DNA from: a bacterium
GTDB taxonomy: Bacteria; Bacillota; Clostridia; Lachnospirales; Lachnospiraceae
Reading direction: 5' to 3'
Length of the DNA stretch: 43,618 bases
Assembly (NCBI GenBank): GCA_050874485.1
Contig: JBNMKT010000001.1
Coordinates: 1-43,618 of the forward strand
Part shown: positions 13,901 to 32,951 of the stretch, piece after piece
Position numbering within the stretch: the stretch's first letter is position 1
Layout of the letters: each line of letters starts with the position of its first letter
The notes under the pieces: generated by a model
Told to the model about the DNA's origin: nothing
The model's database searches: none
Seen by the model: only the letters and a program-made list of their open reading frames with translations
Program-made: the position numbers and the translations under genes

Positions 13901-14187
13901 ATGTCTGCATACAAAGTCGAGATCTGCGGTGTCAACACTGCCAAACTCCCCGTACTCAAAGAAGATGAAAAAGATGCGCTGTTCGCGCGCATCCGCGAAG
14001 GTGATCCGCTTGCCAGAGAAGAATACATCAAAGGGAATCTGCGCCTTGTGCTCTCTATCATCCGGCGCTTTTCCGGCCATACAGACAACATCGATGATCT
14101 GTTTCAGATCGGCTGCATCGGGCTCATGAAATCGATCGATAATTTTGATCCAACACTTGGGGTCAAATTCTCGACCTATGCGGTGCC
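13901..14187 (+). CDS. sigG: RNA polymerase sporulation sigma factor SigG, 5' fragment (codons 1-96), interrupted
   Basis: KVEICGVNTAKLPVL N-terminus diagnostic of SigG; GNLRLVLS, DDLFQIGCIGLMKSIDNFD and KFSTYAVPMI. The reading frame then runs into element DNA and stops at 14218. Confidence 0.95.
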
Positions 14188-14210
14188 GATGATTGTACTT
14201 AGTCGAAACA
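14186..14210. other. attL junction
   Basis: CC-GATGATT followed by arm GTACTTAGTCGAAACA (14195-14210), which is the inverted complement (15/16) of the arm at 32952-32967. Confidence 0.9.
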
Positions 14211-15573: not shown

Positions 15574-15665
15574 TCTATCATATCTCTCCCTCTTATAATA
15601 GGAACTTTCCATCATTGTAGCAGATTCTTCTCCAGATTTCCACCTTCAATATATGGTTATTTTCT

Positions 15666-15674: not shown

Positions 15675-15691
15675 ATTTTCCAAAAAAATGA

Positions 15692-15717
15692 AAAGGATGC
15701 TTGCCTGTGCATCCTTT
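15692..15717 (-). terminator. Intrinsic terminator insulating the recombinase from upstream genes
   Basis: AAAGGATGC-N8-GCATCCTTT stem with a T-rich tail on the minus strand. Confidence 0.7.
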
Positions 15718-15735
15718 CCATTTATACTAACATCT

Positions 15736-15918
15736 TTATGCTGCGTTCTGTGTATCAGCTTCCTCATGTTCCGCTCTCACACTACGCACTTTCCTTGGAG
15801 CTAGGACCGTACGTTTTAAAAATTGCACCGCCCGCTCTCCAAGCTCATATTGACCACTACGAACCAGTTCTGTAACATCCTCTCCACTTGCATTGGTTAT
15901 CGTTCCTATATGTACCAT
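15736..15918 (-). CDS. 60-aa protein, paralogue 1 (candidate recombination directionality factor)
   Basis: MVHIGTITNASGEDVTELVRSGQY is near-identical to the ORF at 30184-30366. Start lies 4 nt after the resolvase stop. Confidence 0.75.
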   Translation of the reverse strand: MVHIGTITNASGEDVTELVRSGQYELGERAVQFLKRTVLAPRKVRSVRAEHEEADTQNAA

Positions 15919-15922
15919 CCGA

Positions 15923-16552
15923 TCACACCCTTTCTTTATCTGACGTTTTCTGCAGTTCCCCTGCCAGCTTATAAAAAGACGATCGTTTTAGTCCCGTCAG
16001 CCGCATCGCCTCTCTTGCCGAAATTTGTCCATTTTTCCACTCATTGAGCACCACATCCAGATTTTCCGGTATGCTGACCCTTGGGCGTCCTAAATGCTTT
16101 CCTTTCTTCTTTGCCGCATCAATACCTTGCCGTTGCCGCTTTCTTATTGTAAGCCGCTCCTGTTCCGCGATGGATGCCAGCACTTCGATCAGGATATTGG
16201 TCACCATCTCCATGATCCACTCCTGTCCCTCCAGGACATCGATCAACGTAGTCGGTAGATCCAGTACCTTCAATCTGATCTTATGATCCCGGAACCACTG
16301 CAGTTCTCCCTTGATGTCCGCTTTGTTTCGACTTAATCTGTCAAGAGACATGACGTATAACGTATCTCCGGCGCGCAGCCCAAACAATCCTTTCAATGCC
16401 TGATAACCCGGACGCTCCAAATCCTTTCCGGAAGCCTTATCTACCACTATACAATCCTCCGGAACAAACTCGCTGAGTGCCAGTATCTGGCGGTCAAGGT
16501 TCTGCTCTGCAGAACTTACCCTTGCATATCCCATGATTCTCCCTGATTCCAA
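15923..16552 (-). CDS. Small serine resolvase/invertase with C-terminal HTH
   Basis: GYARVSS..QNLDRQ, DK.SG, DRLSR, RQRQGI..AK..G..LGRP and HTH tail. GGAGG RBS. Confidence 0.92.
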   Translation of the reverse strand: MESGRIMGYARVSSAEQNLDRQILALSEFVPEDCIVVDKASGKDLERPGYQALKGLFGLRAGDTLYVMSLDRLSRNKADIKGELQWFRDHKIRLKVLDLPTTLIDVLEGQEWIMEMVTNILIEVLASIAEQERLTIRKRQRQGIDAAKKKGKHLGRPRVSIPENLDVVLNEWKNGQISAREAMRLTGLKRSSFYKLAGELQKTSDKERV

Positions 16553-16570
16553 TAAAAATTCCTCCCTTAC

Positions 16571-16696
16571 CGTCCAAAAAGGTTCTGCCGGTTTTCAGTC
16601 ATATCCGAAAACTCAAACAGAACCTTTTCAAACAATTATTTGTGAACTATTTTCCTTTCCAAGAAGGTGTACCTTTACGGACACACGATCTGTGTC
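16571..16696. promoter_or_regulatory. Putative res site / resolvase binding sites
   Basis: Clustered dyads immediately upstream of the resolvase: AAAAGGTTCTG (16577-16587)/CAGAACCTTTT (16618-16628), inner GTTTTC/GAAAAC, AAGGT-GT-ACCTT (16664-16675) and GACACA-N5-TGTGTC (16680-16696). Confidence 0.55.
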
Positions 16697-16709
16697 AGCG
16701 TCTTTAACC

Positions 16710-17630
16710 TTACGCTGCGATCGAAAGTCCATCTTCCTTACTGTAATGGTAGATGTGATTGGAGAGCCTATCTTCCACCGACAACTGTATTTCATTAATG
16801 TCATGTACTACATCACACAGATATGGGAGATTTTTCACCTCTGAAACTGCCACCACCAGCGTCTCGTGAATTGATGAAGGGATAATATAGATATCTTCTC
16901 CTTTTCGATCCACGATCTGATCCATAACATCAGCAAATAACATGTACACAGCTCCAAAATGACACGCCTCATTCGTCAGCACATACAAAGGGTTGTTTAA
17001 CACCATCCGCTCATTACAAAGAAGCAGTTCCCGATCCCTTTCACTCAACATGCTGCTGATTGCATTTGTAATGCTCACAAAAGAGATATTCTCCTGTCTG
17101 GTATTCTGCAATGCAATCTCATAGACCGTCTCCTCGTCCTGTTCCCAGATTGCAAGATGCTCTTTTCTCACAATGACATAAGCTACTCCATCTCCGGAAG
17201 GGTGATCCATCTTCACATACACAACTGCCGACAGATCCAGATAGTCCCTATGGATTGCCGTATCCAGTGTTTCCCGGTTCATGTCCGCTGAGATCACCCG
17301 GAGATATAACCGGCTCTTTACGCGTTCCCAGTCCAGAAAATCATGGACTTCAATCTTTTTGATATTCTCATCCTCTGCATAATACAGCCAAATTGCCTGC
17401 ACAATTTCATCCAGCGTCATGTCATCCAGATATTCCTCATACAAAAGGTCTAAATAGAATACCGGTGATACCTTGCTGTCTGCCGACCGTATCACAATTC
17501 CTCTGCGCTTCAGACCGTTATTCTTATTCACCGTCTCTATACAGACATCGTCACCGTCACTCGCTGTCTGTCGCAGTCGTTTCAAAAGTTCCTCTTCAAA
17601 TGCCTCTCCTACTAATCGTGTTTCTTCCAT
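16710..17630 (-). CDS. DUF5688-family protein
   Basis: KNNG...GI, SP.FYL, LYVLTN...GA, YIIPSSIHE and ED.LSN.IY pattern. Confidence 0.75.
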   Translation of the reverse strand: MEETRLVGEAFEEELLKRLRQTASDGDDVCIETVNKNNGLKRRGIVIRSADSKVSPVFYLDLLYEEYLDDMTLDEIVQAIWLYYAEDENIKKIEVHDFLDWERVKSRLYLRVISADMNRETLDTAIHRDYLDLSAVVYVKMDHPSGDGVAYVIVRKEHLAIWEQDEETVYEIALQNTRQENISFVSITNAISSMLSERDRELLLCNERMVLNNPLYVLTNEACHFGAVYMLFADVMDQIVDRKGEDIYIIPSSIHETLVVAVSEVKNLPYLCDVVHDINEIQLSVEDRLSNHIYHYSKEDGLSIAA

Positions 17631-17642
17631 TGCCTTATCCTC

Positions 17643-18449
17643 CTATGCTGCCTGATTCTCATATACGATTTCATTTGCGATCTCGCTCATGTCTGCGCTG
17701 ATATTGGTCTTGATCGTCTCATCCGTGGATAATACACGCTGAAAGTCCGTTTTCAGCGGCGCGTACTTCAAAGCCTGCTTGATGACCGTTTTCTTTGCCA
17801 TCTCCTCATAGCAGGATTTCCACGGTGAGTAACTGCTCCCGAATGCCTTTGAATAGTTCGATGCATACAGATCCATCTCCTGTTTGCTCATGACACTAAA
17901 GCCGTAACCGCCATTCGATGTCTTGAACAGCCCATAGAAAAAAACCGACTCGCCACGATCAGCGATTTCCGGTCTGTGTATCAGCTTCGGGTTTAACCCG
18001 TATTCATATTCAAAATAGTCATTCTCATAAACAGTCTGTGCCTGTATCGTCTGCATCTGTCCATTACGGTATGCCAGTTCGATCAGCCCCTTGTAACCAA
18101 TCTGAAACTGACACTCCAGGACACCCTTATTCTTGTAAGGGATCAGATATGCCTGACCCAGCGGTGTGTTGGGTTCCAAACCAAGCTGCGCTGCATTTAA
18201 TAGGGCAGCAATAAAACTCATTGGCGTGCACTTCTGCAGTTCCGGTGTGTTGTTCAGCGCAGACAACGCAATCCTTGTAAAGCGCTCCGGTGTCATGACG
18301 CTAGGCAGGGCTTTCTTTAATTCCGGTCCAAGTGCTTTCACGATGTCCGGTATGGACGAGTTCTTTTTCAGCTTCACGCTGCTGTTTTCTGTCTTTGTAA
18401 CGGCAGCTGCCTGTGCCGCCAGTTCTTCCTTAATATCCTTCTGCTCCAT
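17643..18449 (-). CDS. recT: RecT-family single-strand annealing recombinase
   Basis: ERFTRIAL, CTP.SF..ALL.AAQLGLEPNTPLGQAYLIPY, FQIGYKGLI.LA.R and W...YEEMAKKTV. Confidence 0.93.
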   Translation of the reverse strand: MEQKDIKEELAAQAAAVTKTENSSVKLKKNSSIPDIVKALGPELKKALPSVMTPERFTRIALSALNNTPELQKCTPMSFIAALLNAAQLGLEPNTPLGQAYLIPYKNKGVLECQFQIGYKGLIELAYRNGQMQTIQAQTVYENDYFEYEYGLNPKLIHRPEIADRGESVFFYGLFKTSNGGYGFSVMSKQEMDLYASNYSKAFGSSYSPWKSCYEEMAKKTVIKQALKYAPLKTDFQRVLSTDETIKTNISADMSEIANEIVYENQAA

Positions 18450-18460
18450 GATAATCCTCC

Positions 18461-19396
18461 TTATGCTGCCGGTGCATACTTCACATTGAAGCGCCGGCTG
18501 GTAACTTCCTTTATATACTGGTCATAGATCTCTGGTTGCTCCTCTTTTAACCGCTTTGCATCAATACGGTTCTGATTTGCCTGTACCCATGAGATCCGGT
18601 AATCTTCTGCAACTGCATAACTCGCGTCCTGCATCTGCAGTTTAATCTTCTGATCGATCTGCTCTTTCTCCATTTCCAGCTTCTTCACAAGCTGTTCGAT
18701 CTCTGCCCTGCGTGACAGCTGCTCCTTCATGCCAAACAACTGGATCTCCTTTTTCTCGTCTCCGTGATAAAGTTGCAGTAGCATTTCAGAATATGCCTTG
18801 CTTCCGTCCGGATCAGGTGCAATGCCTTTCAACACATGATCTTCCCAGAACTGCTTTTCAATAATGATAAGGTTCTGTATCAGTTCCTCGTCACGCTCAA
18901 TCTTTCTTATGACAAATTCCCTGCCCATGATGAGCGCAGCCACATACCATGTCTTATAACCGGAAACCGCCAGATAATGCTGCACCTGCATTTGGTAATG
19001 AAGCGGCGTCTTTCCGTCGCTCCACTTATCAGCGGAATAAGCACTGACTGTCTTGCATTCCAGTCCGGCTTCTTCCCCTACGATCAGACGGTCAAAATCC
19101 GCTAACATGAACGGATGATCTTCATTCTGATAGACAGCGTTTGCCCTCCGTACCTTGAGTCCCGTTTCCTCTGTAAACCGCTTCGCTACATATTCTTCCA
19201 GATCGCGCCCCTGACGCATCGCCTCATTGTCAAAATTCTCCGTCTCCGCTGACAGCTTGTCATGGTAGACCTGAAAAGCGCTGCTATAGGGATTCATTCC
19301 GGTAATTGCACCGATGTCTGTGCCTGTCAGCCCCGTCTTTCGGATGCGGAGCCATTCTTCTTTTGGCAGATCCACGGTTGAAACTAGTCTTTTCAT
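18461..19396 (-). CDS. YqaJ-like (lambda exonuclease family) viral recombinase/exonuclease
   Basis: EWL..RK.GL.GTD, G..LE..VA..F, A.FDR, LECKT and Y..QVQHY.AV. Confidence 0.93.
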   Translation of the reverse strand: MKRLVSTVDLPKEEWLRIRKTGLTGTDIGAITGMNPYSSAFQVYHDKLSAETENFDNEAMRQGRDLEEYVAKRFTEETGLKVRRANAVYQNEDHPFMLADFDRLIVGEEAGLECKTVSAYSADKWSDGKTPLHYQMQVQHYLAVSGYKTWYVAALIMGREFVIRKIERDEELIQNLIIIEKQFWEDHVLKGIAPDPDGSKAYSEMLLQLYHGDEKKEIQLFGMKEQLSRRAEIEQLVKKLEMEKEQIDQKIKLQMQDASYAVAEDYRISWVQANQNRIDAKRLKEEQPEIYDQYIKEVTSRRFNVKYAPAA

Positions 19397-19397
19397 G

Positions 19398-19535
19398 TCA
19401 GATCATCCCTCCTTTTACGCATGGAATCATATCCGATATGAAGCGTGCCAAATCCTGTCTGAATATGGATACCAAGACGATAAGCACAGTCAATATCAAT
19501 ATAATCTCCACAGTTCCCAAGCCTCTGTTTTTCAT
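19398..19535 (-). CDS. 45-aa Flp1-like type IVb prepilin (not in ORF track)
   Basis: Hand translation MKNRG|LGTVEIILILTVLIVLVSIFRQDLARFISDMIPCVKGGMI. AGGAGG RBS, Gly(-1)/Glu(+5) and a hydrophobic helix. TGA lies 1 nt before the yqaJ ATG. Confidence 0.8.
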   Translation of the reverse strand: MKNRGLGTVEIILILTVLIVLVSIFRQDLARFISDMIPCVKGGMI

Positions 19536-19592
19536 TGTCTGTTTCCTCCTGCGGTACATTTGCCCCGCTTATAATGATCTCTGTTTTCATAG

Positions 19593-20519
19593 CTACGCCA
19601 CCATCTGATACGCACGGGCGATCATAGGATTCCCTTCCACCGTCTTGATGAACAGGTTTTCACTGTAATTCTTGGTGCGTCTGATCGGTTCTGCATGGGT
19701 AGCGAAATCAGATACTGCATTGATAAAACGGTACGCATTATTTCCTACGTGCTGCAGATCTGGAGCATCAAAGTAACGGCGCTTTAAGTCCTCCAAAAGC
19801 CTTCCGTTATTCTTCCGCTGGATGTCAGACTGCTCCACACTAAGCGGAAAGAAGGTCTGCATGTACTCGATCACCTTTTTGTCCGAGAGCTTCGTCTGAT
19901 TCAGTCGGTCGATCGTCCTTCCCAGCTCACTCATGTAACCATGTGCAAATAACAGCGTTTCCTTTGCGTCATCCATACGATCCATGATGTTTTCCGTATG
20001 CTTCGTCTGCCAAATCCGCTTTGCTGTCGATAAAGCAAGATTCAAAGTGTTGGAGCATACCACGCGTACCGGCGTCATACATACCTTAATAGAAGATGTA
20101 CCGTCATGTGAGTTCATGACCAGCAGATAGGGCGTGATCTTATCCCCTGCGATAATGTACTGTTCCGGTAGCTTGGCTAAAATCCATGTCCGCCTGCCGC
20201 CCTGCAGCGATCCAGCCGTCTCATACTTCACGCCAGCTCCCAGCAATTCATCCGTGAAGCGGAACGCATCGACATTCTGTACGACCTTGTAACGATCTGT
20301 CACAATGCCAAGCTGCTGAAAGTCTGAATCACGGTAGTTGAGCTTGTAACCCGGAATATAGAAACCTTCCTTTGTGTAGACATCCTTCTGTCTTACCTCC
20401 CAGTCCAGGCCTGCCACCTGCAGCGCAGTCTTTGAATCCGGTGCCTCACTCACCACGTTCCCCAGCCCATGCCAAGGTGTTGTTCTTGTCGAAAACATTG
20501 TCTCTACTTCATGTGCCAT
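19593..20519 (-). CDS. DUF932/DUF945-family phage/plasmid protein
   Basis: MAHEVETM..R..PWHGLG, AGLDW.V, Y..VQN, ETAGSL.GG, NSHDG, TPVRVVC.NTL and H. Confidence 0.88.
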   Translation of the reverse strand: MAHEVETMFSTRTTPWHGLGNVVSEAPDSKTALQVAGLDWEVRQKDVYTKEGFYIPGYKLNYRDSDFQQLGIVTDRYKVVQNVDAFRFTDELLGAGVKYETAGSLQGGRRTWILAKLPEQYIIAGDKITPYLLVMNSHDGTSSIKVCMTPVRVVCSNTLNLALSTAKRIWQTKHTENIMDRMDDAKETLLFAHGYMSELGRTIDRLNQTKLSDKKVIEYMQTFFPLSVEQSDIQRKNNGRLLEDLKRRYFDAPDLQHVGNNAYRFINAVSDFATHAEPIRRTKNYSENLFIKTVEGNPMIARAYQMVA

Positions 20520-20543
20520 AATAAGTTATCCTCCTTTTGACAG

Positions 20544-20571
20544 AAAAAGCCCCCGGCGCTGTGCCGGGGGC
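20544..20571 (-). terminator. Strong intrinsic terminator-like hairpin just upstream of the DUF932 RBS
   Basis: GCCCCCGGC-N5-GCCGGGGGC followed by TTTTT on the minus strand. Confidence 0.75.
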
Positions 20572-20642
20572 AATTGATTATTACTACTGCAATGATATGT
20601 AATTCAAAAAGAATACTTTATCAGCACAATCCTGTGATCGCA

Positions 20643-20789
20643 CTATTTCTTTCGAATATGGTTCAAAATCTTTTTTGCTGCCTGTTCCTTTGCCCTGCAG
20701 CTCGGACAGATATGCGTCACAGATGTCAGATCCTTCATATAGATCCGCCCACATCTTTGGCATCTTTCCGTTCCTGATACAAAAGTCAT
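20643..20789 (-). CDS. 48-aa zinc-ribbon protein (not in ORF track)
   Basis: Hand translation MTFVSGTERCQRCGRIYMKDLTSVTHICPSCRAKEQAAKKILNHIRKK, with CxxC-x14-CxxC. AAGGGGTG RBS. Lies directly after the box promoter. Confidence 0.7.
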   Translation of the reverse strand: MTFVSGTERCQRCGRIYMKDLTSVTHICPSCRAKEQAAKKILNHIRKK

Positions 20790-20824
20790 CCCGGTTCACC
20801 CCTTTCTTTGATTCCCTTACACGC

Positions 20825-20856
20825 AGTATAGCAAATTCCAGTGACACAGTTTGTCA
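20825..20856 (-). promoter_or_regulatory. Box promoter 1 (TGACA-N5-TGTCA, 11 nt, TATACT)
   Basis: TGACACAGTTTGTCA at 20842-20856; -10 TATACT on the minus strand at 20825-20830. Confidence 0.8.
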
Positions 20857-20906
20857 CCGACAGAGAAAAAATCTTTTTTCTATTTCACAATCTTTTTCAC
20901 TCCACA

Positions 20907-20938
20907 TGACATGGTCTGTCATCCCCCAAATGTATGAT
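20907..20938 (+). promoter_or_regulatory. Box promoter 2 (TGACA-N5-TGTCA, 11 nt, TATGAT)
   Basis: TGACATGGTCTGTCA at 20907-20921; -10 TATGAT at 20933-20938. Confidence 0.8.
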
Positions 20939-21005
20939 AAATACAGCAAGAGCCACTTCAAGTGACTACAAAAACAAGCAAAACACCAAGAAAGGACAGA
21001 AACAT

Positions 21006-21800
21006 ATGGAAGAGACAAAAAACACTGAAATTCAAGCAGAAGAAGCCTATTCGTATCATTACGAAGATTATCACACACCACTGGCATGCGCTTTTCATTC
21101 CAGACTGGAAGCATTCAAGTATACAGATTATTACAGCCTGTCGTTTGACAGCCGGATCGGTTCCGAGTTCTATAACAGCAAATCTGCATGTGAAAAAGCA
21201 CGCAAGCAGTGCATCGAAACAGCCTATTACGCTGCAAAACAGCACTTCACGCCCTCATCTTCTCTGTGTATCGCTGATGACGCAGTAAAATTTTACTCCA
21301 AGCGCGTAGAAAGTGTTTTCTTCCCGGTCATTGACCGCATGGAAATGCTCTGTAAATCCACCAATCAGCCGACTGCTTTCACCAAGTTAAAAGAGCTTGT
21401 AGATGGATGCAAAGCAGAACTGACCAAGCGCTTCGAGAATGAGTTACGTAAAAATGCAAGCTACTACGCCCTGTACGATGTCAGCTACTTCATTGAAAAA
21501 GTTCCGATTGAAAAGCACGATTTCCGCGTTTCGGAAGATGTCGTATTCAAGCTGCTGGAAACACTGATCGCTGACAATGTCCAGTACACGATCACCGACA
21601 TCTATACCTCTATCGGAGAGATGGAACACGATCTGAACAACCACGCCGGCACTTTTTTCAACACCGCGTACAGCGAATACACGAGCTATGTATCCGAGAT
21701 TGAATCACTCTTAGACGGCATCGGTAACGGCTTCCCTCCTCTGCAGGAGGGCGAAAATGCCAATGATTATGTTCATCGGATTTGTTCTTCACAATATTAG
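21006..21800 (+). CDS. Hypothetical helical protein (264 aa)
   Basis: Long clean ORF. AAGGA precedes ATG 21006. Preceded by box promoter 2 and followed by terminators. Confidence 0.7.
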   Translation: MEETKNTEIQAEEAYSYHYEDYHTPLACAFHSRLEAFKYTDYYSLSFDSRIGSEFYNSKSACEKARKQCIETAYYAAKQHFTPSSSLCIADDAVKFYSKRVESVFFPVIDRMEMLCKSTNQPTAFTKLKELVDGCKAELTKRFENELRKNASYYALYDVSYFIEKVPIEKHDFRVSEDVVFKLLETLIADNVQYTITDIYTSIGEMEHDLNNHAGTFFNTAYSEYTSYVSEIESLLDGIGNGFPPLQEGENANDYVHRICSSQY

Positions 21801-21824
21801 TTTTATATCTTTCCGCAAAAAAGA

Positions 21825-21905
21825 ACCGTTCATGCCGCATTAGAGCATGAACGGTGACTTTTTATTGTATACCTATACAATAAAACCACCAGCTAAGCTG
21901 GTGGT
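21825..21905. terminator. Three consecutive hairpins between convergent genes
   Basis: ACCGTTCATGC/GCATGAACGGT (21825-21855), TTTTATTGTATA-CC-TATACAATAAAA (21860-21885) and ACCACCAGCT-A-AGCTGGTGGT (21885-21905). Confidence 0.8.
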
Positions 21906-21912
21906 GCTAATT

Positions 21913-22824
21913 TTAGTATAAGGATGTAAGAAAATCCTGCAAATTTTTATCCGTAGATGTCACAGATCCAGTTTCATGATCCCAGAACACAACATTCTTA
22001 TTTGCTAAAGAATAACAAATATAATTGCCAAACACAACCGTTTTAGAAGACTCCGACAACATTCTGTATGTAGCTGCTTTATGCTCCGGGTCGCGTGAAT
22101 TATTTGGTCCTGGAGTATCCACAAGCACTAACGAAACATCATCTGCCGTAACAAAAGGAATATTTCCTTCTACATGAACTCGAGACACCTCTGGATTACT
22201 ATTCAAACTATTCATTATATCAAAGGTCAGTTCCGGATGTGTCTGTATCAGATTTCCATCTGAATCGTACACCTTTGCTGTGAAATAGTCAGCATCATTA
22301 TCTTTGATTTCTGTAATGGTTGCAGTACATGCTTCTTGTTTTGCAGGCATTAACCGCTGTCTGAGAAGTGCATTGATTAATGTCGATTTTCCAGCACTCA
22401 TGGTAGCTACTACATTTACCTCGAAATCACTACTCTTTGCCAAATTAAATGCCTTAATAACATCCGGCTGTTTCAATTCTTCGAATGGTCCCGCCTGAAT
22501 TTCATCAAAGATCTCACTAATAGCAGCTTCCTTATCTGCAACTTCCTTTGCCGGAATATGTTCAAGCTCGATGTTTATATTTTTCTTTTTTGCATCCCGC
22601 GCCATTGCCTCGACATCTTCGTAATCTAGCGTGGTTCCCTGAAAGATAATTTTAAAATCGCGAACACTACATTCCTCAAATAGAATATCGGGCAAGTCTT
22701 CGATCCATTCCTGCAATCTTCGATCATAAAAATTCAACTGGCTGTTCTGCTTTGGAGCTACGCCATCAACTAAAACTTCTGTTTCCAAACGATACGGATT
22801 GTACTTAATTGAAATCTCTGTCAT
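21913..22824 (-). pseudogene. Truncated dynamin-like GTPase fused to a SMI1/KNR4-like C-terminal fragment
   Basis: ATMSAGKST (G1), ACTA (G2) and DTPG (G3) present; G4 NKxD and helical stalk absent. Tail FGNYICY...VVFWDHE...LQDFLTSLY. Confidence 0.7.
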
Positions 22825-22830
22825 TATTCA

Positions 22831-24153
22831 TCACCTCATATTGTAAATTATATTTTCCAGTTGCAATAAACCCGAATGTTTCAGCACCTGGTAACTTTTT
22901 TCTTCGTTATCAACTTGAACTGCTTTTTGAATATCTTCTGGATAATAACTATCAAACTGATATTCATTTTTCCTCATTTTCCTTGCCATTCTATCTAGTT
23001 CATCCAACTCATCTTCATTTAACTTTTCTCCAAAAATAGACATTTTGGCAAGATACGCCGCATATGCAGAAACAGGAGCTATATTCAATTCATCAAATCC
23101 TATTTCATGCAAATCAGCTACAATCTGTTTTAAACTGTCAGGAACAGAGTCATCTTTTCCGAACGTATCTAATTTATTTACTACAAAAATAATTTTACCA
23201 TGAAAGTTTTTCTGTACAAATAAAAGATGCTGCCTATCGTCTTCTGTTCCAAGACTTTCACCATTCATCAGATATATCAGTGCGTCCGCATCTGATGTAC
23301 TCAATGCATTCTCTGTGAGTTTTCTGTGATCCTTATTCTGTGCTGAATTAACCCCCGGTGTATCTATAAGCCACATTCTCTTCGGGGTTGTGCCAATTGT
23401 CCTAAATGAAACACCCACTTCTATCTCTGAACTATTATTGTCAACATTGTCATCCATTAAGGTATCATAATCAGCGTCCAATTCTAGAAGGTAATCATAC
23501 TCATAATATAAATTGTCTTCAAATGCCTTATTTTCAATATAATGCAACTTTGAAGTACAAGCAGCATGCTGTGTTTTGCTCACTTTTTTCCCAACTAACG
23601 CGTTTAACAGAGTCGACTTTCCGGCACTCATATTAGCAGTCACAATCACTTTTATAGGTTTTTCCTGCAAGAAATCTCGATTCTTATCCCAGCACTCTCT
23701 CATATAATCAATTTTATCAATGTTCTCTACCGATACTGAAGCATCGTATAAATACTCAAAAACCTGACGGATTTTCTTCTGATACCGCTTATGATAGATG
23801 ACTGAAAGTTCTTCATATATTTTTTCTCCTTTGTCCTGATCCATATAAGCATTCATAAAGATGCAATCAAAAACCAAACAGTATCTATATGAAAAAAATT
23901 TAAATGGTTTAAACTTTGTTGCAACCACACGTTTGGATTTCTTTTGTATATTATATGCTGTTGGAAGATCGACAGGTTCGCTTCCAACTAACTTTTGGTA
24001 ATACAAAAGCAATGTTTGCTTCGCCCACAAATCATCTTTTGAATACTTCTGAACAAAGTAGTTCAAAACATTTACATACCTCAGCCTATATTTTTCTTCC
24101 AATATAGGATGTTTTTCTAACATCTGCGATACTTCCAAATGCAAGTCATTCAT
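22831..24153 (-). CDS. Dynamin-like GTPase (440 aa)
   Basis: ANMSAGKST, ACTS, DTPG, NKLD and PVSA motifs. Confidence 0.85.
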   Translation of the reverse strand: MNDLHLEVSQMLEKHPILEEKYRLRYVNVLNYFVQKYSKDDLWAKQTLLLYYQKLVGSEPVDLPTAYNIQKKSKRVVATKFKPFKFFSYRYCLVFDCIFMNAYMDQDKGEKIYEELSVIYHKRYQKKIRQVFEYLYDASVSVENIDKIDYMRECWDKNRDFLQEKPIKVIVTANMSAGKSTLLNALVGKKVSKTQHAACTSKLHYIENKAFEDNLYYEYDYLLELDADYDTLMDDNVDNNSSEIEVGVSFRTIGTTPKRMWLIDTPGVNSAQNKDHRKLTENALSTSDADALIYLMNGESLGTEDDRQHLLFVQKNFHGKIIFVVNKLDTFGKDDSVPDSLKQIVADLHEIGFDELNIAPVSAYAAYLAKMSIFGEKLNEDELDELDRMARKMRKNEYQFDSYYPEDIQKAVQVDNEEKSYQVLKHSGLLQLENIIYNMR

Positions 24154-24250
24154 AAAATCCTTCCTCCATACAAGTCATTCTCATATTTTTTCATATGCCG
24201 GAGCCCTCATCATACATATATGTCATTTATACATCAGGCTTTGACTTCTT

Positions 24251-25210
24251 TTAGTTTATAAACTCAACATTATTTCCCTGACTTCTAAACCACATATCTA
24301 TTCCGTCTCCAAACACCTCCGCTCTTATAATATAAGCACCATTATCTTCTTCAACAATCTCTGCTGTAGGCAGTTTATCCAAAACAGCTTCCACCGATAA
24401 GCCGGTATAGCGAAATTTCACTTTCCGTAGCTTACCACCATACATAAACTGTATCCGTTTTCTAAATTCTCCCTCTTCAAAACGATTCGCATAAGGCACT
24501 CGATAGTGTTCATCGGTCACCTTTACATCTATTATCCGATCAATCCGATAAATTGTAGGAAAGGAATCGTTTAAAACATCAAAGTCTGCCCTTGTTGCTT
24601 CATCGTCAATAAATGCCGTCATGTAGAAATAAAACTCAGAAAACATGATTGCAGCAGGCATAACTTTACGATTCACAACCTTTTTGTCCTTCAAGCGCAT
24701 ATATGAAATCTCAATGTACTGATGTTGCTGAATTGCTTGACCGATCAACCACATCTTGTTAATAAACACCGATTTGTGTCTTGGCTCTACATAATGGTAC
24801 TCTTCATTGCAGATCAAGTCTTTCACTAATTTTTGATTTTCTTTCGGCACACAACAATCAAGTAACTTGTCCAACATAGCGACCATTTCTTTTTTGGTAA
24901 ACGCTCTGCTATCCAAAAGGATTTTACAAATAGCAAGAATTTCTGCATTACTAAATTTCAATTGATACAGCTGTCCTAACCGGAAACCTTTTTTTGCACG
25001 ATCATAGACCACAGAATTTACAATGCCACTGTCCACCACCGCTTTATCTAAAAACTTACGAATATCATCAATATCTCTCTGAATCGTCCGTTCATTCACG
25101 CCATAGTTATTGGCTTCCTCTGCTTTTTGGATAACAGCTCCATTCAAAAGTTTCGTGTATAGATCAAGCACTCGTTCTGTTTTATCTGATGTACCCTGCT
25201 CAACTGCCAT
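24251..25210 (-). CDS. WYL-domain transcriptional regulator (wHTH-WYL-WCX)
   Basis: N-terminal HTH GVNERTIQRDIDDIR, FSEFYFYM (WYL-equivalent), YRIDRI and C-terminal W..SQG. Confidence 0.92.
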   Translation of the reverse strand: MAVEQGTSDKTERVLDLYTKLLNGAVIQKAEEANNYGVNERTIQRDIDDIRKFLDKAVVDSGIVNSVVYDRAKKGFRLGQLYQLKFSNAEILAICKILLDSRAFTKKEMVAMLDKLLDCCVPKENQKLVKDLICNEEYHYVEPRHKSVFINKMWLIGQAIQQHQYIEISYMRLKDKKVVNRKVMPAAIMFSEFYFYMTAFIDDEATRADFDVLNDSFPTIYRIDRIIDVKVTDEHYRVPYANRFEEGEFRKRIQFMYGGKLRKVKFRYTGLSVEAVLDKLPTAEIVEEDNGAYIIRAEVFGDGIDMWFRSQGNNVEFIN

Positions 25211-25241
25211 TTAATCACTCCTGTCTTTAAAAATTTATCCT

Positions 25242-25273
25242 ATTTTACCAAACAGCAATGACACATCCTGTCA
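25242..25273 (-). promoter_or_regulatory. Box promoter 3, upstream of the WYL gene
   Basis: TGACACATCCTGTCA at 25259-25273; 11 nt; TGG-TAAAAT extended -10 at 25242-25247. Confidence 0.8.
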
Positions 25274-25621
25274 CACATCAAAATTTTCTTCATTTACTTT
25301 ACTTAGATAAAGCAATTATACTCTTTAAACAATTCTATATCAATATTTTTGTGCATAATATTCATTTTTCTTCATTATTTCCTATCTTTTTAACAATTTC
25401 CTTTTCGTCCAGTGCTTTAGAACAATTATAAGTATCCACGCATACACATAGACAGCTCGAATCTTTCTCTTGTCCCCATTTCTCATATTTTCTATTTTAC
25501 AACAAATTTTCGTTGCCGCAACTATTAGCATAAGCAAATACTGCTTTCCGCTTATTATTCTCTTTTGATAACTCTTGTATTATTTTCATATACTATGAGT
25601 TGTATTTGGAGGTTACCGACT

Positions 25622-25954
25622 ATGGACTATGTCTTTCTTGGGAAACGTATCCGCGAGGAGCGCTTACGGTTAAATCTAACGCAGGAAAAGCTGGCAGAAG
25701 CCTGTGGCATTTCCACCGCATATCTGGGACAGATTGAACGCGGCGAGCGTTGCATCACCCTTGATAAGCTGATCCCACTGGCAAACTGTTTGGGAACTAC
25801 GATTGATTTTCTTCTCTCAGATTACATCAACCCCCAGAACGACACTAACTTTAATATTCTCTTTCAGCTATTTCAAGGTAAGAGCGATCAGGAAAAGGAG
25901 CTTGCCATTCAACTGCTCAAACTTCTCTTTTCATATACAGATGGACGTCTCTAA
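25622..25954 (+). CDS. XRE-family HTH transcriptional regulator
   Basis: LGKRIREER...LTQEKLAE.CGIS..YLGQIERGER. GGAGG precedes ATG 25622. Confidence 0.9.
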   Translation: MDYVFLGKRIREERLRLNLTQEKLAEACGISTAYLGQIERGERCITLDKLIPLANCLGTTIDFLLSDYINPQNDTNFNILFQLFQGKSDQEKELAIQLLKLLFSYTDGRL

Positions 25955-25962
25955 GCGCCAAT

Positions 25963-25992
25963 TGTCCGGTATGCGTAACTGCATACCGGACA
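25963..25992. terminator. Intrinsic terminator between convergent genes
   Basis: TGTCCGGTATGC-N6-GCATACCGGACA followed by TTGTTTTT. Confidence 0.8.
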
Positions 25993-26003
25993 TTGTTTTT
26001 ATT

Positions 26004-26911
26004 CTATAACATTCCAAATCCCAGTGTTCCACACTCATTGACCAGATCAAAGACCACAACCGTCTTGTTATCCCAGCTGATCAGCTTCTGCTCGCCTTTT
26101 CCATATCCATCGCCATCATTCAATAGATAATTGTCAACCTTAACAACATTCCAGTCAGAATCGTATGTCAGCACAGAATATGCACCGTAGATCTTCTCAT
26201 CACTATTATTGTTCAGCAATGCCACCGTACGGTTATCTTCATAACTCATGCTCACATCAGCCTTGGCTTTCCCATTCTTTTTTCCGATCAACTTAATCGA
26301 AGTCATTTCAGGAGAGGAAAATTCAACATGCTCCACAGCCTAAAGTACACACGCTGCTCTCCTTTGCCGTTTACACTGACATAACAGTTGCCAACACCGT
26401 CATAGACCTTCTTCCAGTTCTTGTCATAGCCTACCAGATCCACAGAAACCACTAACGGACGATCTGTTTTGTTCTTGACAACAACACTGGCACAGCTATC
26501 ACTTTCTCTCTGGAAGTCTTTGAGACTCATAATTGATTTGTCACTCTTGTAACTCTTTACGACTACATTACGCGTCACCTTACCTTTGCCGGATTTAATC
26601 GTGATCTTTGCCTTTCCTGCCTTTTCAGCAGTAAGAACACTGCCTGCAACTGATACTACCTTAGAATTGCTTGTGGTACACTTTATCGGTCCGGCGGCTC
26701 CTGCAGTAACACGAACTCCCACACGTTCGCCCTCTCCATTCACCAACCACATCTCCTGATTGTTGCTCAGATTGACTTTCAGCGCACTTGCTGCCTCTGC
26801 CTCCACGCAAGCAAAACTCATATTCTGCCCACCGATCAGCCCCGTCATGGTCAATGACAGTGCCAGTACAAGTCCTAATCCTTTTCTTTTCATCCATTGC
26901 GTTCTCTTCAT
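26004..26911 (-). pseudogene. Secreted Ig-like (Big_2-type) protein, split by a frameshift near 26340
   Basis: Signal peptide MKRTQWMKRKGLGLVLALSL..., TSNSKVVSV..G.LTA.K.GKA.IT motif. The two overlapping ORFs share a repeated YD..W..V...GKGEQ domain. Confidence 0.6.
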
Positions 26912-26939
26912 AGCGCACGCCTCCTTTTTTTATAAAAAG

Positions 26940-26971
26940 AGCTTACCATAGCACTATGACATACCGTGTCA
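26940..26971 (-). promoter_or_regulatory. Box promoter 4, upstream of the secreted protein gene
   Basis: TGACATACCGTGTCA at 26957-26971; 11 nt; TGG-TAAGCT at 26940-26945. Confidence 0.75.
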
Positions 26972-27195
26972 CTTACAAAAAAATTTTCTACGATCCAGCA
27001 GGTGCCGTGCCAGCCGGGACTAGCCCGGGTTCGACCACTATTATAATATCTAATCTCACTAGGAGCAGTTACCATATCTGCCCATAGATCCAGTGACTGG
27101 CAGCTTCCTACAGATTAAGCCAACAAAAAAGCCCCTGTTTGATTCTTCATCATAACAAGAGCTTTCGCTATACGATCCATCTGTAGCAAATCAAC

Positions 27196-27420
27196 TTATG
27201 CAGCATATTCTACAATTGCAACTTCTGTCAGGGCTTCTTTTAACTTTTTTACAATCTCCTCAATTCGTGCGACAACCTCTCCACTATAAGAGACTTCTCC
27301 GCACTGGCTACATTTATGGCATGGCACATGCTTAATAATAATAAAATGTCCATCCAAGTCCACCATGTAATTGCAGAAATCATCTTTCATTTCACCTTTA
27401 CAATAAAAACATTTATCCAT
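27196..27420 (-). CDS. YgiT/MqsA-type zinc-finger protein (putative antitoxin)
   Basis: C..CKG...IIIK.VPC.KC.QCGE pattern, directly downstream of a DUF4258-like gene. Confidence 0.85.
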   Translation of the reverse strand: MDKCFYCKGEMKDDFCNYMVDLDGHFIIIKHVPCHKCSQCGEVSYSGEVVARIEEIVKKLKEALTEVAIVEYAA

Positions 27421-27424
27421 GCAA

Positions 27425-27733
27425 TCATTCCTTCCTCTTTTTTAATTCTTCATCCCATTGAGATGGATCCGGTTCATACGCTGTAATTAGCCATAGCTTA
27501 TGTTCTCCAATACCTACAACTACATGCAGTTTTCGTTCGTGAATCGTCATCCCCAAGATCAAACAGCTTGGATATGGATAATCATCGGGATATTCCTCAA
27601 TAATTTCCCCGTTTTTTATTACTTCCTTAATTTCCTCATACGAAATATTCCGCTGCTGACATCTCATCAGAATATGCTGTGTTACCTCGATCGTTGCATC
27701 TCTGCACAATAATTTAATCTGATCTATGTCCAT
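27425..27733 (-). CDS. DUF4258-family protein (putative RelE-like toxin)
   Basis: T.H...R...R.I, GEIIEEYPDDYPYPSCLILG, LHVV and ITAYEP...W. Confidence 0.85.
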   Translation of the reverse strand: MDIDQIKLLCRDATIEVTQHILMRCQQRNISYEEIKEVIKNGEIIEEYPDDYPYPSCLILGMTIHERKLHVVVGIGEHKLWLITAYEPDPSQWDEELKKRKE

Positions 27734-27922
27734 GTAGTACCATCTCCCCTCGCAGCTTATATTTTCTCCATTAATATTATACCCTCTCCGTCCAAATTTG
27801 TACACACCTTTTGCTCCTGATCCGAATATCGCAATACATATGTTTCATTGCCCCTTATTTAACGTGGTCGACATTTCTAAACATTCATTTAAATAAACCA
27901 AAATCCAAGGGGGGGATTTATA

Positions 27923-28108
27923 ATGTACGATAATGAAATCAGCGATCTGATCAGTATAGAGGATCTATGCGACATGCTAGCCATCGGAAAAAACACTGCG
28001 TATCATCTGTTGAACACTAATGAAATCCAAGCCTTTCGTATCGGGCGTAGTTGGAAGATTCCTCGCCAGAGCGTCATCAACTATATCAAAAACAAAAGTG
28101 GACTCTGA
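27923..28108 (+). CDS. Excisionase-like HTH_17 DNA-binding protein
   Basis: L.IGKNTAY.L.....I.AFRIGRSWKIP. GGGGG RBS. Confidence 0.85.
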   Translation: MYDNEISDLISIEDLCDMLAIGKNTAYHLLNTNEIQAFRIGRSWKIPRQSVINYIKNKSGL

Positions 28109-28139
28109 TCCTTTTCTATGGGTAGGCAGTGTTAGCTGC

Positions 28140-28763
28140 CTACTCTCCCTTCTTTCCCTGTTCAAGTAATGCCTGGTATTGAGGATCTGTTTTTCTGAAA
28201 CAGTTCGCATTCTTAAATGTCACAGGAGACCTTTGTGCATAATTTCCCAAAATCTGATCAAACTGGTTATTCCTTGCCACTCGTTCTTCGTTTGTTTGAT
28301 GAAATTTCTTACCATCAACATAACTAACGCTGTTTCCAGCAAAATGTACATGCATAAATGAACTATCCGTTTTTTCCTTAGGTCTTGTCAAATGTGTTGC
28401 CGCAATAACTTGATATCCCATATCATAAAATTCTCGTCCCATTTCTTCAAATGCCATTACTACTAAACTTGGATTGCAGCCAACCTGACAAAATGCTTCT
28501 TCTTTAATCGAATACTGCATATGGAAAGCTCTCCTTCCACCTCTGGAATCTATATTATATACTCTCTGAATTTGATTCACCAGTTCAATCTGTTTAGCAA
28601 GGCTGTCATCATTATCTATACCATAACTTCTATAACTTACTAAATCAGTAGCATCTCTCTTATCTCTACAACAATACTTTGCGACTTTTTCAAAAGCATC
28701 TTTATTTCCATAGGCGCCTTTCTTATGATTCGAAATATTTATAAGCATTCCTTCAATTGACAT
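28140..28763 (-). CDS. Short relaxase/mobilization nuclease (HUH)
   Basis: N-terminal Tyr helix, AFH...S, YQVIAATH......HVHFAGNSVS..DGKK. Confidence 0.8.
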   Translation of the reverse strand: MSIEGMLINISNHKKGAYGNKDAFEKVAKYCCRDKRDATDLVSYRSYGIDNDDSLAKQIELVNQIQRVYNIDSRGGRRAFHMQYSIKEEAFCQVGCNPSLVVMAFEEMGREFYDMGYQVIAATHLTRPKEKTDSSFMHVHFAGNSVSYVDGKKFHQTNEERVARNNQFDQILGNYAQRSPVTFKNANCFRKTDPQYQALLEQGKKGE

Positions 28764-28993
28764 ACAATCCCTCCAATCTGTTGTTTTAATTCCGGTAAAT
28801 CATTGCACATCTGCGTAAGCTGCACGCAAAGCCGCGCTGTCATCTGTTGCTTACGCTTGTTTGTTATCCTTTTAGGAATACAGCAAGTCTCTATGTAATC
28901 TCCAACAGACATGCCATTCTCTTTTGCATGATCACTAATCGCTTGCTTTGTGATCTGTGAACATCGAAACTCTACCTTACTGTCTTTTGACAT
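28739..28993 (-). CDS. MobC-like ribbon-helix-helix accessory protein
   Basis: KVEFRCS...K..I...A...GMSV.DYI pattern. Overlaps the relaxase start. AGGAGG RBS. Confidence 0.65.
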   Translation of the reverse strand: MSKDSKVEFRCSQITKQAISDHAKENGMSVGDYIETCCIPKRITNKRKQQMTARLCVQLTQMCNDLPELKQQIGGIVCQLKECL

Positions 28994-29356
28994 CCATTTG
29001 ACCCTCCTTGTCATTTTGGGGATTCTATGAGAAGTTTGAATATATGTATAAATATAATTTCTTTATCATAATATACTTTCTATTTGTCATATTTCTTTAT
29101 TTCTGTATATTCTCTATTTTCAAGAATACCTTTTTCAGAATTACATATCTTTGATTTATATATATAACAAGTATACCTTTTGTCGGACATTTCTTCTTTC
29201 CCGATCAAAGCATCCCTCATTACAGAAGCCCTCCTTTGCATTTTTACTTATAGTATTGTTTATTCTATCCCTTCACGCTTTGTATTTGCCCACTTCTTAT
29301 CGTATAATACCGAAAAAGAAAGGTGTGCATCTCTGCCCACCTTCTCGCGGCCTGTT

Positions 29357-29761
29357 TTACACAGACATCACACATTTTTCGTTATAATACGGTATCAGTG
29401 AATCATGTGTCACAAATACCATTCCTTCTACCTTTGCCTGGGCTATAAGCAGCCGATCAAAAGGATCATTATGTCGCGGAGCATCTTCCGGTCTCACCAA
29501 AGTTTTGATCTTGTAGATATGCTCTGCAGCAATAGGCAACTGATGCAAGCCTGCTTCCACACATAATTCCACAAACGCTTCCTCTGATACAGGCATTTCC
29601 TCCGGTCGGATCTTATGCTTAATTGCGATCTCCCAAACCGAAGCCATGCTATAATACACCGTATTCCCGGATGATTTCAATGCTGCCACAACCTTATCCG
29701 GTAATTTTTCCGGAGCTGTGAATGCCCACAAGGCAATATGCGTATCTAATAACAGCTTCAT
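29357..29761 (-). CDS. PIN-domain (VapC-type) toxin
   Basis: LLDTH..LW, S.ASVWEIAIK, H.DPFDRLLIAQA and T.D. Confidence 0.92.
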   Translation of the reverse strand: MKLLLDTHIALWAFTAPEKLPDKVVAALKSSGNTVYYSMASVWEIAIKHKIRPEEMPVSEEAFVELCVEAGLHQLPIAAEHIYKIKTLVRPEDAPRHNDPFDRLLIAQAKVEGMVFVTHDSLIPYYNEKCVMSV

Positions 29762-30033
29762 CCTTCACTTGCCCCAAACATTTCTGCAATTTCATCATTA
29801 GCGCCATCAATATCGTCCGGTAACTGATACTTCCCTTTTGCAAGCCCCAGCTTAACGCCCGTATCCGGTACGGTCAGATGTATGGTAAACGGCATAGCTT
29901 TGTCCTGTACGCTCTGCTTTGCGAAGATACGCACCGCCTCTGCAAAAGATGTCCCCATGTTCTTATAAAGGCTCTCCACCTGTTCTTTGAGATCAGCGTC
30001 CATTCTCACTTGTAACGTAGCTTCTTTTGCCAT
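29758..30033 (-). CDS. RelB/DinJ-type antitoxin
   Basis: LQVRMD..LK......Y..MG....EAVRIF..Q.V....MPF. ATGA overlap with the toxin start. Confidence 0.85.
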   Translation of the reverse strand: MAKEATLQVRMDADLKEQVESLYKNMGTSFAEAVRIFAKQSVQDKAMPFTIHLTVPDTGVKLGLAKGKYQLPDDIDGANDEIAEMFGASEG

Positions 30034-30051
30034 GAGATCCCCTCCTTTTTT

Positions 30052-30069
30052 GTAATACAATTGTACTAC
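30052..30069. promoter_or_regulatory. Putative TA operator palindrome
   Basis: GTAATACAATTGTACTAC (perfect core TACAATTGTA) just upstream of the antitoxin RBS, overlapping a TACAAT -10. Confidence 0.6.
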
Positions 30070-30144
30070 GTTATTTTATCTTACGCAACCCTTTCTTATG
30101 CAGTCCCCCTCTCTCCCGGCAAGCGACATTTTTTGACAAAGACA

Positions 30145-30172
30145 CGGCACCTTGGATTTCTCCAAGATGCCG
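30145..30172 (-). terminator. Hairpin downstream of paralogue 2
   Basis: CGGCACCTTGGA-TTTC-TCCAAGATGCCG (one mismatch). Confidence 0.6.
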
Positions 30173-30183
30173 CCATGCTTGTC

Positions 30184-30366
30184 TTATGCACTTACCTTTG
30201 TATCCGTCCCTAAATGATCGCCGTTGGCAGCCTGCTCCTTACGACTTGCCTGTAGCACACGGTTCAAATAGTCGTTTGCCCTGTCACTCAAAGCATACTG
30301 CCCGCTCTTGACTAATTCCGTGACATCTTCTCCTGCTGCATTCGTAATCATACCAAGATGTACCAT
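30184..30366 (-). CDS. 60-aa protein, paralogue 2 (candidate recombination directionality factor)
   Basis: MVHLGMITNAAGEDVTELVKSGQY. GGAG RBS. Preceded by a perfect dyad AATCATGTA-GTTA-TACATGATT (30379-30400). Confidence 0.75.
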   Translation of the reverse strand: MVHLGMITNAAGEDVTELVKSGQYALSDRANDYLNRVLQASRKEQAANGDHLGTDTKVSA

Positions 30367-30419
30367 CAATATCACTCCAATCATGTAGTTATACATGATT
30401 GTTGCCGGAATGATATTTT

Positions 30420-32303: not shown

Positions 32304-32930
32304 CTATTTTTTTATTATACGTTCAAATATCTCTGCAAATCCTTTATTCAAGCCATTTAAGTGGCTTTCGTCAATCTTCTTACAAGTATCTATCGATACC
32401 TTCAATTTATGCTTCATATCTAATCCAGCAAGTTTTTGCATTTCAATATAGGAAAAAACTTTAAGTATATTTCCTAAAGTTTTCGTACTCGGACTGCCCT
32501 CTCTCCGCATCTTATTATACTCTTCCTCAGTCACATAGGCTCCGCCCTTCATCGCCAGATACTGCTCTTTGAAGTCTGCCAGCCATTCAAAGGGACTCTT
32601 ACCGTTATATCTGCCCCGGTAGATGTATTCTCGATCAGGATAGTGTTCATCCATCCACTGATTAACCGAAGTGACCTTGAATCGGTTTTTAATCGTTGAC
32701 AGTGAGGGCAACTCCCTGTACTTATTAAAGTCATTCAGATTCGGCAGCCGACCATTGTGATCAATCCGGAACTGCTCAATCGCATCGAAGATGGCAGCCT
32801 CTGTCCATAAAACACCGGGCGTTTCCTGTTTCATATCCTCCAGCAGCTGCATCAGCTCCTCTTGGTATTCAAATTCCGGCAGTTGTGCTATAATCTCCTT
32901 AGCAATTATCAATGCTTGTCTTCTAGTCAT
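32304..32930 (-). CDS. Putative DNA-binding protein with two homing-endonuclease-associated-repeat-like units
   Basis: WTEAAIFDAIEQF...GRLP...DF.....LPS..TIKNRF and a second ...EEEYNK.R..GSPS..T unit. GGAGGT RBS before ATG 32930. Confidence 0.55.
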   Translation of the reverse strand: MTRRQALIIAKEIIAQLPEFEYQEELMQLLEDMKQETPGVLWTEAAIFDAIEQFRIDHNGRLPNLNDFNKYRELPSLSTIKNRFKVTSVNQWMDEHYPDREYIYRGRYNGKSPFEWLADFKEQYLAMKGGAYVTEEEYNKMRREGSPSTKTLGNILKVFSYIEMQKLAGLDMKHKLKVSIDTCKKIDESHLNGLNKGFAEIFERIIKK

Positions 32931-32951
32931 GTCAAAACCTCCATATTTGGC

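Follow-up and report, generated by a model that had tools for sequence, protein, structure and literature searches.

A serine-recombinase element in sigG with two paralogous 60-amino-acid proteins as candidate directionality factors

An element that splits sigG

In the 43,618-nucleotide (nt) stretch of a Lachnospiraceae genome analysed here (GCA_050874485.1, contig JBNMKT010000001.1, positions 1 to 43,618; hereafter the window), the sporulation sigma-factor gene sigG is split by an integrated element that encodes a large serine recombinase (LSR) and two paralogous proteins of 60 amino acids (aa), herein termed copy 1 and copy 2, whose genes lie 14.4–14.6 kb apart. With moderate confidence, we interpret the element as a chimera in which the 60-aa proteins are the recombination directionality factors (RDFs) of the LSR, with copy 2 timing excision in the forespore. 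The element splits sigG at a CC dinucleotide, with 18,789 bp between the two CC cores, and its removal leaves an open frame of 258 codons. An inverted repeat joins both element ends, and the two element arms match at 19/23 positions. Another intact sigG was not found in this genome, which is 93% complete and in which the remaining matches were sigF, sigA-like and sigE genes. In G370, a genome of the same genus, sigG stands uninterrupted among the same neighbours, and the carrier's two halves are 95–98% identical to the G370 protein. Most genomes of the family, G370 included, likewise have an unsplit sigG among the 150 of 270 matches listed, while the split gene was the sole sigG found in 5/5 other carriers checked, and the same Pro-Met codons are cut in seven other elements for which both ends are present.

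The LSR aligns over residues 139–449 of 452 to positions 3–318 of the 328 in the C-terminal domain of the A118 integrase, and because this alignment runs to its last residues, the enzyme has no C-terminal extension beyond the DNA-binding domain DBD2. Since it ends at DBD2 like the A118 integrase, its RDF site is not blocked. The element that encodes both copies has an LSR whose catalytic domain is intact, whose two DNA-binding domains are present and whose C-terminus is free at DBD2. A C-terminal extension has been linked to LSRs that work without an RDF (Shin et al.; PMC12286644). The sigma-A-like promoter candidate of the LSR is a weak call, as four such sites were found against 1.9 expected.

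Relatives of the LSR were gathered from 174 loci, comprising 14 from 400 genomes of the family, the best 80 of 469 GTDB contig loci and the best 80 of 365 IMG/VR (viral) loci, with flanks of at most 10 kb (1.5 kb for 14 loci) and with at least two genome loci duplicated in the set (L034/L080 and L035/L075). Of the 94 genome loci, 55 have a sigG half next to the LSR, three have a sigF-like half there, 32 have neither and four lack flank; among the 80 viral loci the LSR abuts a sigG half in 13 and a sigF-like half in one. In the relatives L039, L040, L041 (~150 nt past the LSR stop) and L204 the LSR borders the 3′ half of a gene resembling sigF that is interrupted at the corresponding codon; judged from these sequences, the clade may also split sigF. 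Of genome loci L033–L126, 24 have the LSR directed at the 5′ part of sigG and 31 at the 3′ part, and the attP-like palindrome that follows the LSR in 16 viral loci has a core of CC (10) or GG (6), which together are consistent with two orientation classes. L070, L089 and about 30 loci with neither half keep a unit of small gene plus LSR, often with the sigma-F-type motif described below and with no attachment (att) site beside the LSR; in L070 this unit sits mid-way in a 14.7-kb element. In addition, sigG 3′ halves occur in short open frames at G380:C1:2003535, G450:C35:146075 and G334:C111:6374. An LSR relative lies 0.9 Mb from the 3′ half in G380, and a search of 19.5 kb of upstream sequence in each of G380 and G450 turned up no sigG 5′ half.

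Position and promoter are divided between two paralogues

The preliminary description of this DNA, made from the letters alone, had reported two paralogous 60-aa open reading frames (ORFs) in direct orientation, the first being the gene nearest the LSR and each being followed by a hairpin, and all of this was borne out, with both ORFs on the minus strand. The hairpin after copy 1 is absent from the list returned by a strict terminator scan. Pairwise BLASTP aligned the two proteins with 32/60 identical residues (53%, E 6e-23), the conservation being concentrated in residues 1–43 and reaching 23/30 at the N-terminus. In codons 2–30, synonymous sites are saturated (pS 0.89) against a pN of 0.18, and the copies are therefore protein-coding genes under purifying selection with an old common origin; the saturation rules out a recent duplication. 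The frame of copy 2 is open to 30396 (70 aa), and the ribosome-binding site (RBS) favours the ATG at 30366. The stop codon of another serine recombinase gene, a small resolvase (15923–16552) that the preliminary description does not mention, lies 5 nt ahead of the copy 1 start. We rejected the possibility that copy 1 is part of a resolvase module, given that 0/6 resolvase loci carry it (one of these loci ends at the resolvase), two of the six having a block of RecT, DUF5688 and resolvase.

Just upstream of the LSR, the relatives carry a small gene in what we call the slot. An RBS-bearing small ORF occupies it in 159 relatives, in 131 of which the product belongs to one family of 35–65-aa proteins. 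A hidden Markov model (HMM) of this slot family matches 138/174 LSR loci, never twice per locus, and its scan of this genome's 47,046 ORFs yielded no member (best E 1.5). By position, copy 1 fills the slot, directly upstream of the LSR and on the same strand, whereas copy 2 does not. In L042 (L042:399-569 and L042:1310-1498), the LSR-adjacent slot holds a small gene that we take to be AbrB-like, the customary slot-family gene being located 0.9 kb farther upstream.

Upstream of copy 2 lies a candidate sigma-F-type promoter, the best site of this type in the element. In two models of the motif (seeded and unseeded), both of which were trained on other elements only, the copy 2 upstream region ranks 1/1,972 in this genome, with spoIIR second and sigG fifth or sixth. 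In Clostridioides difficile spoIIR belongs to the sigma-F genes, and sigma-F promoters are marked by a G ahead of the -10 box (PMC3789822). The region upstream of copy 1 scores -3.0 and 2.4 bits in the two models, those of the resolvase and the LSR are also low, and a helix-turn-helix (HTH) gene of the cargo (27923–28108) has no sigma-F-type site (0.2 bits). Among the relatives, the motif was found at the slot gene in 53/61 non-redundant upstream regions compared with 7/59 control windows, a count that scores the model's own training set and to that extent speaks less strongly for the reading, and it is present at 32/32 sigG-adjacent genome loci. A strict two-box pattern, which was written with the copy 2 upstream region already seen, matched 11/61 upstream regions versus 0.93 in shuffles (maximum 5, 200 shuffles) and 13/1,402 genes of this genome. 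The search was repeated unseeded, and the best of ten Gibbs restarts returned the same motif and the second best a shifted version of it, while the other eight missed it. The -10 box of copy 2 fits the second part of the B. subtilis SigF consensus (GYATA and GGnnAnAHTR; PMC11599450) bar the last base. Further points count against the assignment: the -35 box of copy 2 differs from the B. subtilis consensus at 2/5 bases and overlaps the last codon and stop of the neighbouring helicase-like gene, and other top matches of the promoter model include genes without a known forespore role (dus, mazF-like, ACT and larC), which means that the model is not fully specific. Sigma-F would be the logical reader of this promoter because sigma-G, its gene being split, could not start the process. 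The features that go together in the slot family are thus divided within this element, the LSR-adjacent position being with copy 1 only and the sigma-F-type motif with copy 2 only, an asymmetry that the preliminary description had not noted.

The dyad that had been described upstream of copy 2 is real, but the 9-bp arms given for it were too short, since perfect 10-bp arms (30378–30387 and 30392–30401) flank a 4-nt loop. Perfect 9-bp inverted repeats number 11 matches (7 separate places) in the element against 0.43 expected in shuffles; such dyads are not due to chance, yet that of copy 2 is not unique. A role as operator seems more likely than one as an RNA hairpin, because an RNA initiated at the predicted start would include just one of the arms. 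Past the copy 2 hairpin, the stretch 30090–30112 resembles the resolvase gene end before copy 1 (15940–15965), a likeness that could be the scar of cargo insertion or chance. The features of the element are collected in Table 1.

Table 1 Features of the sigG element, with positions in the window.
Feature	Position	Strand	Remarks
sigG 5′ half, codons 1–96	13901–14187	+	NF006071 SigG positions 1–99, E 3e-47; ends at crossover dinucleotide
attL	14163–14210		Predicted crossover CC 14186–14187; element arm 14188–14210; inverted repeat I7 with other end
LSR (452–466 aa)	14215–15615	-	Pfam Resolvase, Recombinase and Zn ribbon; catalytic serine motif intact
Sigma-A-like promoter candidate for LSR, extended -10	15614–15642	-	Consensus match 9/12, TG present
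Terminator-like hairpin after copy 1	15686–15723	-	-20.1 kcal/mol, z -4.2, U-rich tail
Copy 1, 60-aa candidate RDF	15736–15918	-	LSR-adjacent slot; without sigma-F-type site
Cargo, ~14.1 kb	15923–30060		Pfam scan and small-ORF list
Terminator-like hairpin after copy 2	30137–30183	-	-30.9 kcal/mol, z -3.6
Copy 2, 60-aa paralogue, candidate sporulation-timed RDF	30184–30366	-	
Perfect 10-bp dyad, candidate operator	30378–30401		Overlaps -10 box and predicted transcript start of copy 2; putative role from position
Sigma-F-type promoter candidate of copy 2	30398–30425	-	-35 30425–30421, 14-nt spacer, -10 30406–30398
Superfamily 2 (DEAD/ResIII) helicase-like gene	30420–32219	-	Pfam scan
orf219, junction gene (probable start 32930)	32304–32963	-	Homologues in L065, L070, L131, L136
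attR	32952–32999		Element arm 32952–32974; predicted crossover CC 32975–32976
sigG 3′ half, codons 97–258	32977–33466	+	NF006071 positions 97–257, E 1e-78

According to Pfam, the cargo comprises the small resolvase, DUF5688, RecT, YqaJ, DUF932, two dynamin-like GTPases, WYL and XRE proteins, followed by a DUF4258/MqsA-like pair, the HTH protein, a relaxase, NikA and a PIN/RelB pair. The low-GC stretch 21913–25210 holds the WYL gene and then the two GTPase genes, a possible defence module, and the second GTPase (303 aa) looks truncated by a plus-strand ORF (20934–21800). Against PF18780 (HNH_repeat), orf219 gave E 0.39 and its L065 homologue 1.7e-4. This gene starts just inside attR with an RBS and without a promoter match, and in attP forms its homologue directly follows the LSR (L131:11340-12000; L136:3420-4080), after the attP-like palindrome; it may be expressed only after excision. 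The usual gene run is spoIIGA-sigE-sigG; here a gene for an RNase-like protein of metallo-beta-lactamase fold (33485–35122) lies between sigE and sigG, with sigG opposing it on the other strand, in the same order as in G370.

Directionality factors and the alternatives

The proposal that the 60-aa family is the RDF, which the preliminary description had made, gains indirect support from the slot position, the order of structural elements and the promoter motif of copy 2, while the sequences give no match to the slot-family profile. AlphaFold modelled copy 1 as a hairpin (bridge 8/14), a short helix (residues 16–21) and a long helix (28–37), the same element order as in the slot family (strands 9–11 and 14–16, helices 18–23 and 29–48). 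P0009, which is distantly homologous to the copies (E 1e-4), scored 17.6 on the slot-family profile against a maximum of 14.0 in 1,500 control N-termini, just exceeding the lowest leave-one-out member of the slot family (15.5). RDFs share no motif, and searches of Pfam, NCBIfam, PHROGs, PDB and BFVD gave no match of the copies to a characterised RDF. Fold searches with the models of copy 1 and the slot family likewise returned nothing; the ESM Atlas gave one weak unnamed cluster at 0.75. Several results weigh against the proposal. Copies 1 and 2 score at noise level against the slot family (alignment A5; HMMER E 0.46 and 0.66; HHalign probability 0.7–4.6%), with glocal profile scores of 1.0 and 2.0, respectively; P0009 is the one bridge among seven proteins tested; and the copy 1 model is modest (predicted local distance difference test, pLDDT, 69.8; predicted template modelling score, pTM, 0.43; seven sequences), the element order it shares being simple. 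The copies thus resemble the slot protein by position and shape, and their membership of the slot family is not established by sequence.

The 60-aa family itself is tiny, with three close clusters, P0006 and the distant P0009 group, after three long repeat proteins among the homologue matches were dropped. A search for the genomic context of its members gave no match in 380 genomes of the order, three viral scans and GenBank phages. In 400 genomes of the family, 57 weak matches lie in ORFs of ~530 aa and were treated as chance; the one in this genome resembles what is presumably glucose-6-phosphate isomerase. A single metagenome match (L031), inside a longer unrelated ORF, was also dropped. 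A link to the LSR comes from contig sizes, in that five members of the 77% cluster, among the 75–77% homologues of copy 1, have longest contigs exactly equal in size to those of members of the 85% LSR cluster (5618, 2581, 7322, 2033 and 7099), and the longest contigs of P0009 and of the LSR P0023 are also of the same size (4635). Such linkage is indirect, and no further size match was seen for P0131, P0166 or P0167. It ties the lineage of copy 1 and not that of copy 2 to the LSR, which copy 2 may therefore not recognise. Both points weigh against the favoured interpretation.

The same observations are the starting point of the alternative that survives best, albeit as an unlikely one, namely that the family is the RDF and only copy 1 fits the LSR. 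Copy 2 would then be the remnant RDF from another element that no longer has its recombinase, excision would occur via read-through from the cargo into copy 1, and sporulation timing would be lost. Besides the contig sizes, the saturated synonymous sites fit copies that come from different elements, and RDF orthogonality is reported to vary within one integrase family (PMC11530663). However, copy 2 keeps its ORF, RBS, hairpin and the best sigma-F-type site of the genome, which a dead passenger would be expected to lose; the copies are identical at most of their first 30 residues, as given above, and two similar RDFs both work for Int30 (PMC12286644).

Alternatively, the 60-aa proteins would be sporulation-timed accessory proteins (regulators or host modulators), and excision would depend on the HTH protein, on orf219 or on no factor at all. 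The lack of a significant match of the copies to the slot family or to any library family agrees with this, as do LSRs, e.g., those of SCCmec, that need no RDF (PMC12286644), and the RDF role of the slot family is itself putative. We nevertheless consider this explanation distinctly unlikely: the HTH gene lies in the cargo and has no sigma-F-type site, L065 and L080, two small complete elements, leave no room for it judging by their gene content, orf219 homologues occur in only 4/177 loci searched, and the LSR is without the C-terminal extension seen in RDF-less enzymes. Least probable is an ordinary parasite that landed in conserved sigma-factor sequence and excises on stress or at random, or is stuck in a carrier unable to sporulate, with an inherited and unused promoter match; the use of the same site by large viral contigs (the 13/80 loci above) and the unsplit sigG of most family genomes are in its favour, but it is very unlikely given that both sigG halves are intact and close to the G370 protein, that the split copy is the sole sigG in the other carriers checked, and that the motif is kept in every sigG-adjacent genome element.

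As for the history of the element, the preliminary description had offered two routes, a minimal core expanded by cargo or the recombination of two related elements, and had asked whether shorter one-copy elements exist. Among the relatives, L065, a sigG element of 2.55 kb, consists of an orf219 homologue, one small gene and the LSR only, and an orf219 homologue also lies at the element end in L070. This layout, and the occurrence of the RecT-DUF5688-resolvase block in other genomes without the small gene, support expansion by cargo, whereas the helicase, which had been counted in the core, falls outside it, since none of the 177 loci searched yielded a homologue. The saturated synonymous sites favour recombination of two related elements over simple duplication. 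In the simplest history, the ancestor had one copy (promoter, small gene, terminator, LSR) and later either underwent recombination with a relative or acquired a mobilisable block of 14 kb, so that copy 2 ended up with the promoter and copy 1 with the position.

Proposed mechanism, known systems and meaning

Returning to the favoured interpretation, with both 60-aa proteins as RDFs, the LSR would be made from its sigma-A-like promoter and, without its cofactor, remain locked on attL x attR. After asymmetric division, sigma-F is predicted to transcribe copy 2 together with the sigG promoter; the small protein would bind the junction of DBD2 and coiled coil and permit excision, and sigG would be rejoined in the forespore. 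The element would have become a chimera through the 14-kb cargo block or through a crossover of two related elements, and copy 1 would now be read only through the resolvase gene of the cargo. More speculatively, because the forespore is the germ line, the circle would have to persist and re-integrate after germination, and on the circle the LSR transcript would cross attP into orf219. No joined attL-attR form was found in the assembled contigs of four DNA runs from one study, contigs being prone to drop rare variants; attP-like forms exist among the relatives.

The layout recalls the C. difficile skin element, in which an LSR element in sigK splits a sporulation sigma-factor gene, the LSR CD1231, made under sigma-A, waits for the compartment-specific RDF CD1234, and this small protein, under a sporulation sigma factor, sets the place and time of excision (PMC5025042). 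In contrast, the present element targets sigG, with a predicted promoter of the forespore sigma-F type, where skin depends on mother-cell sigma-E/SpoIIID; there are two paralogues here, and the comparison with CD1234 is one of layout, not of sequence. The gin element in gerE of B. cereus ATCC 10987 (LSR GirC, 42-aa RDF GirX) is likewise non-phage and composite, with an extra dispensable serine recombinase and a small motif-less RDF, but gerE is a mother-cell gene, gin has one RDF and girC is itself sporulation-induced (PMC5595907). SPbeta in spsM (integrase SprA, RDF SprB) also combines a constitutive integrase with a small sporulation-controlled RDF and stays mobile; unlike the present element, it is a full prophage with a mother-cell target and is lost with the mother cell. 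Between the SPbeta RDF system and the models built here, no structural match was found. Int30 offers a precedent for one element encoding two similar small proteins, both of which act as RDFs, although that pair has been tested and its locus tags are close together in a phage, whereas the copies here are far apart with different promoters; the RDF of Nm60 resembles the slot family by eye only, without a score (PMC12286644). Lastly, in reversible active lysogeny (the Listeria comK prophage, SpyCIM1), a host gene is restored by excision in cells whose line has to retain the element, so that re-integration is needed, but this is not tied to sporulation, and re-integration here is a proposal only (PMC13492144).

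As in the known sporulation gene-intervening elements, an att-flanked element splits a sporulation gene of which no other intact copy was found, and its precise removal restores the frame. Those elements are excised in the mother cell, which dies, while the spore keeps the element (PMC5595907, PMC5025042, PMC10747680, PMC13492144, bioRxiv 2022.02.25.481979, PMC5942855), whereas sigG encodes a forespore sigma factor. The literature searched, with subscription papers and bioRxiv supplements outside its scope, yielded no report of a sigG-intervening element, and the available part of the Galperin preprint describes split sigK only. The parts are therefore known in kind (LSR, small RDF, split sporulation gene), and the sigG target and forespore-type timing depart from the mother-cell cases.

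Tentatively, and with less confidence than in the RDF assignment itself, we propose that a widespread clade of elements rebuilds sigG by sigma-F-timed excision in the forespore, which would be a programmed and reversible rearrangement of the heritable genome. In the element described here this switch would be split, with one RDF paralogue under a developmental promoter and the other beside the integrase and answering to the mobilisation cargo, so that sporulation and transfer may have separate triggers. The combination of a paralogue with the promoter and a paralogue with the position is a natural experiment that lets cognate specificity and timing be separated, and the relatives suggest many candidate integrase-RDF pairs, a kind of genome-engineering tool that is in short supply. 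If our interpretation is correct, a sigG element with a sigma-F-timed factor would have to leave the chromosome in the germ line and afterwards be retained or inserted again, a new developmental logic that can be tested directly in the cultured carriers found (Flavonifractor and Agathobaculum, e.g., Flavonifractor sp. An82 and Agathobaculum desmolans).

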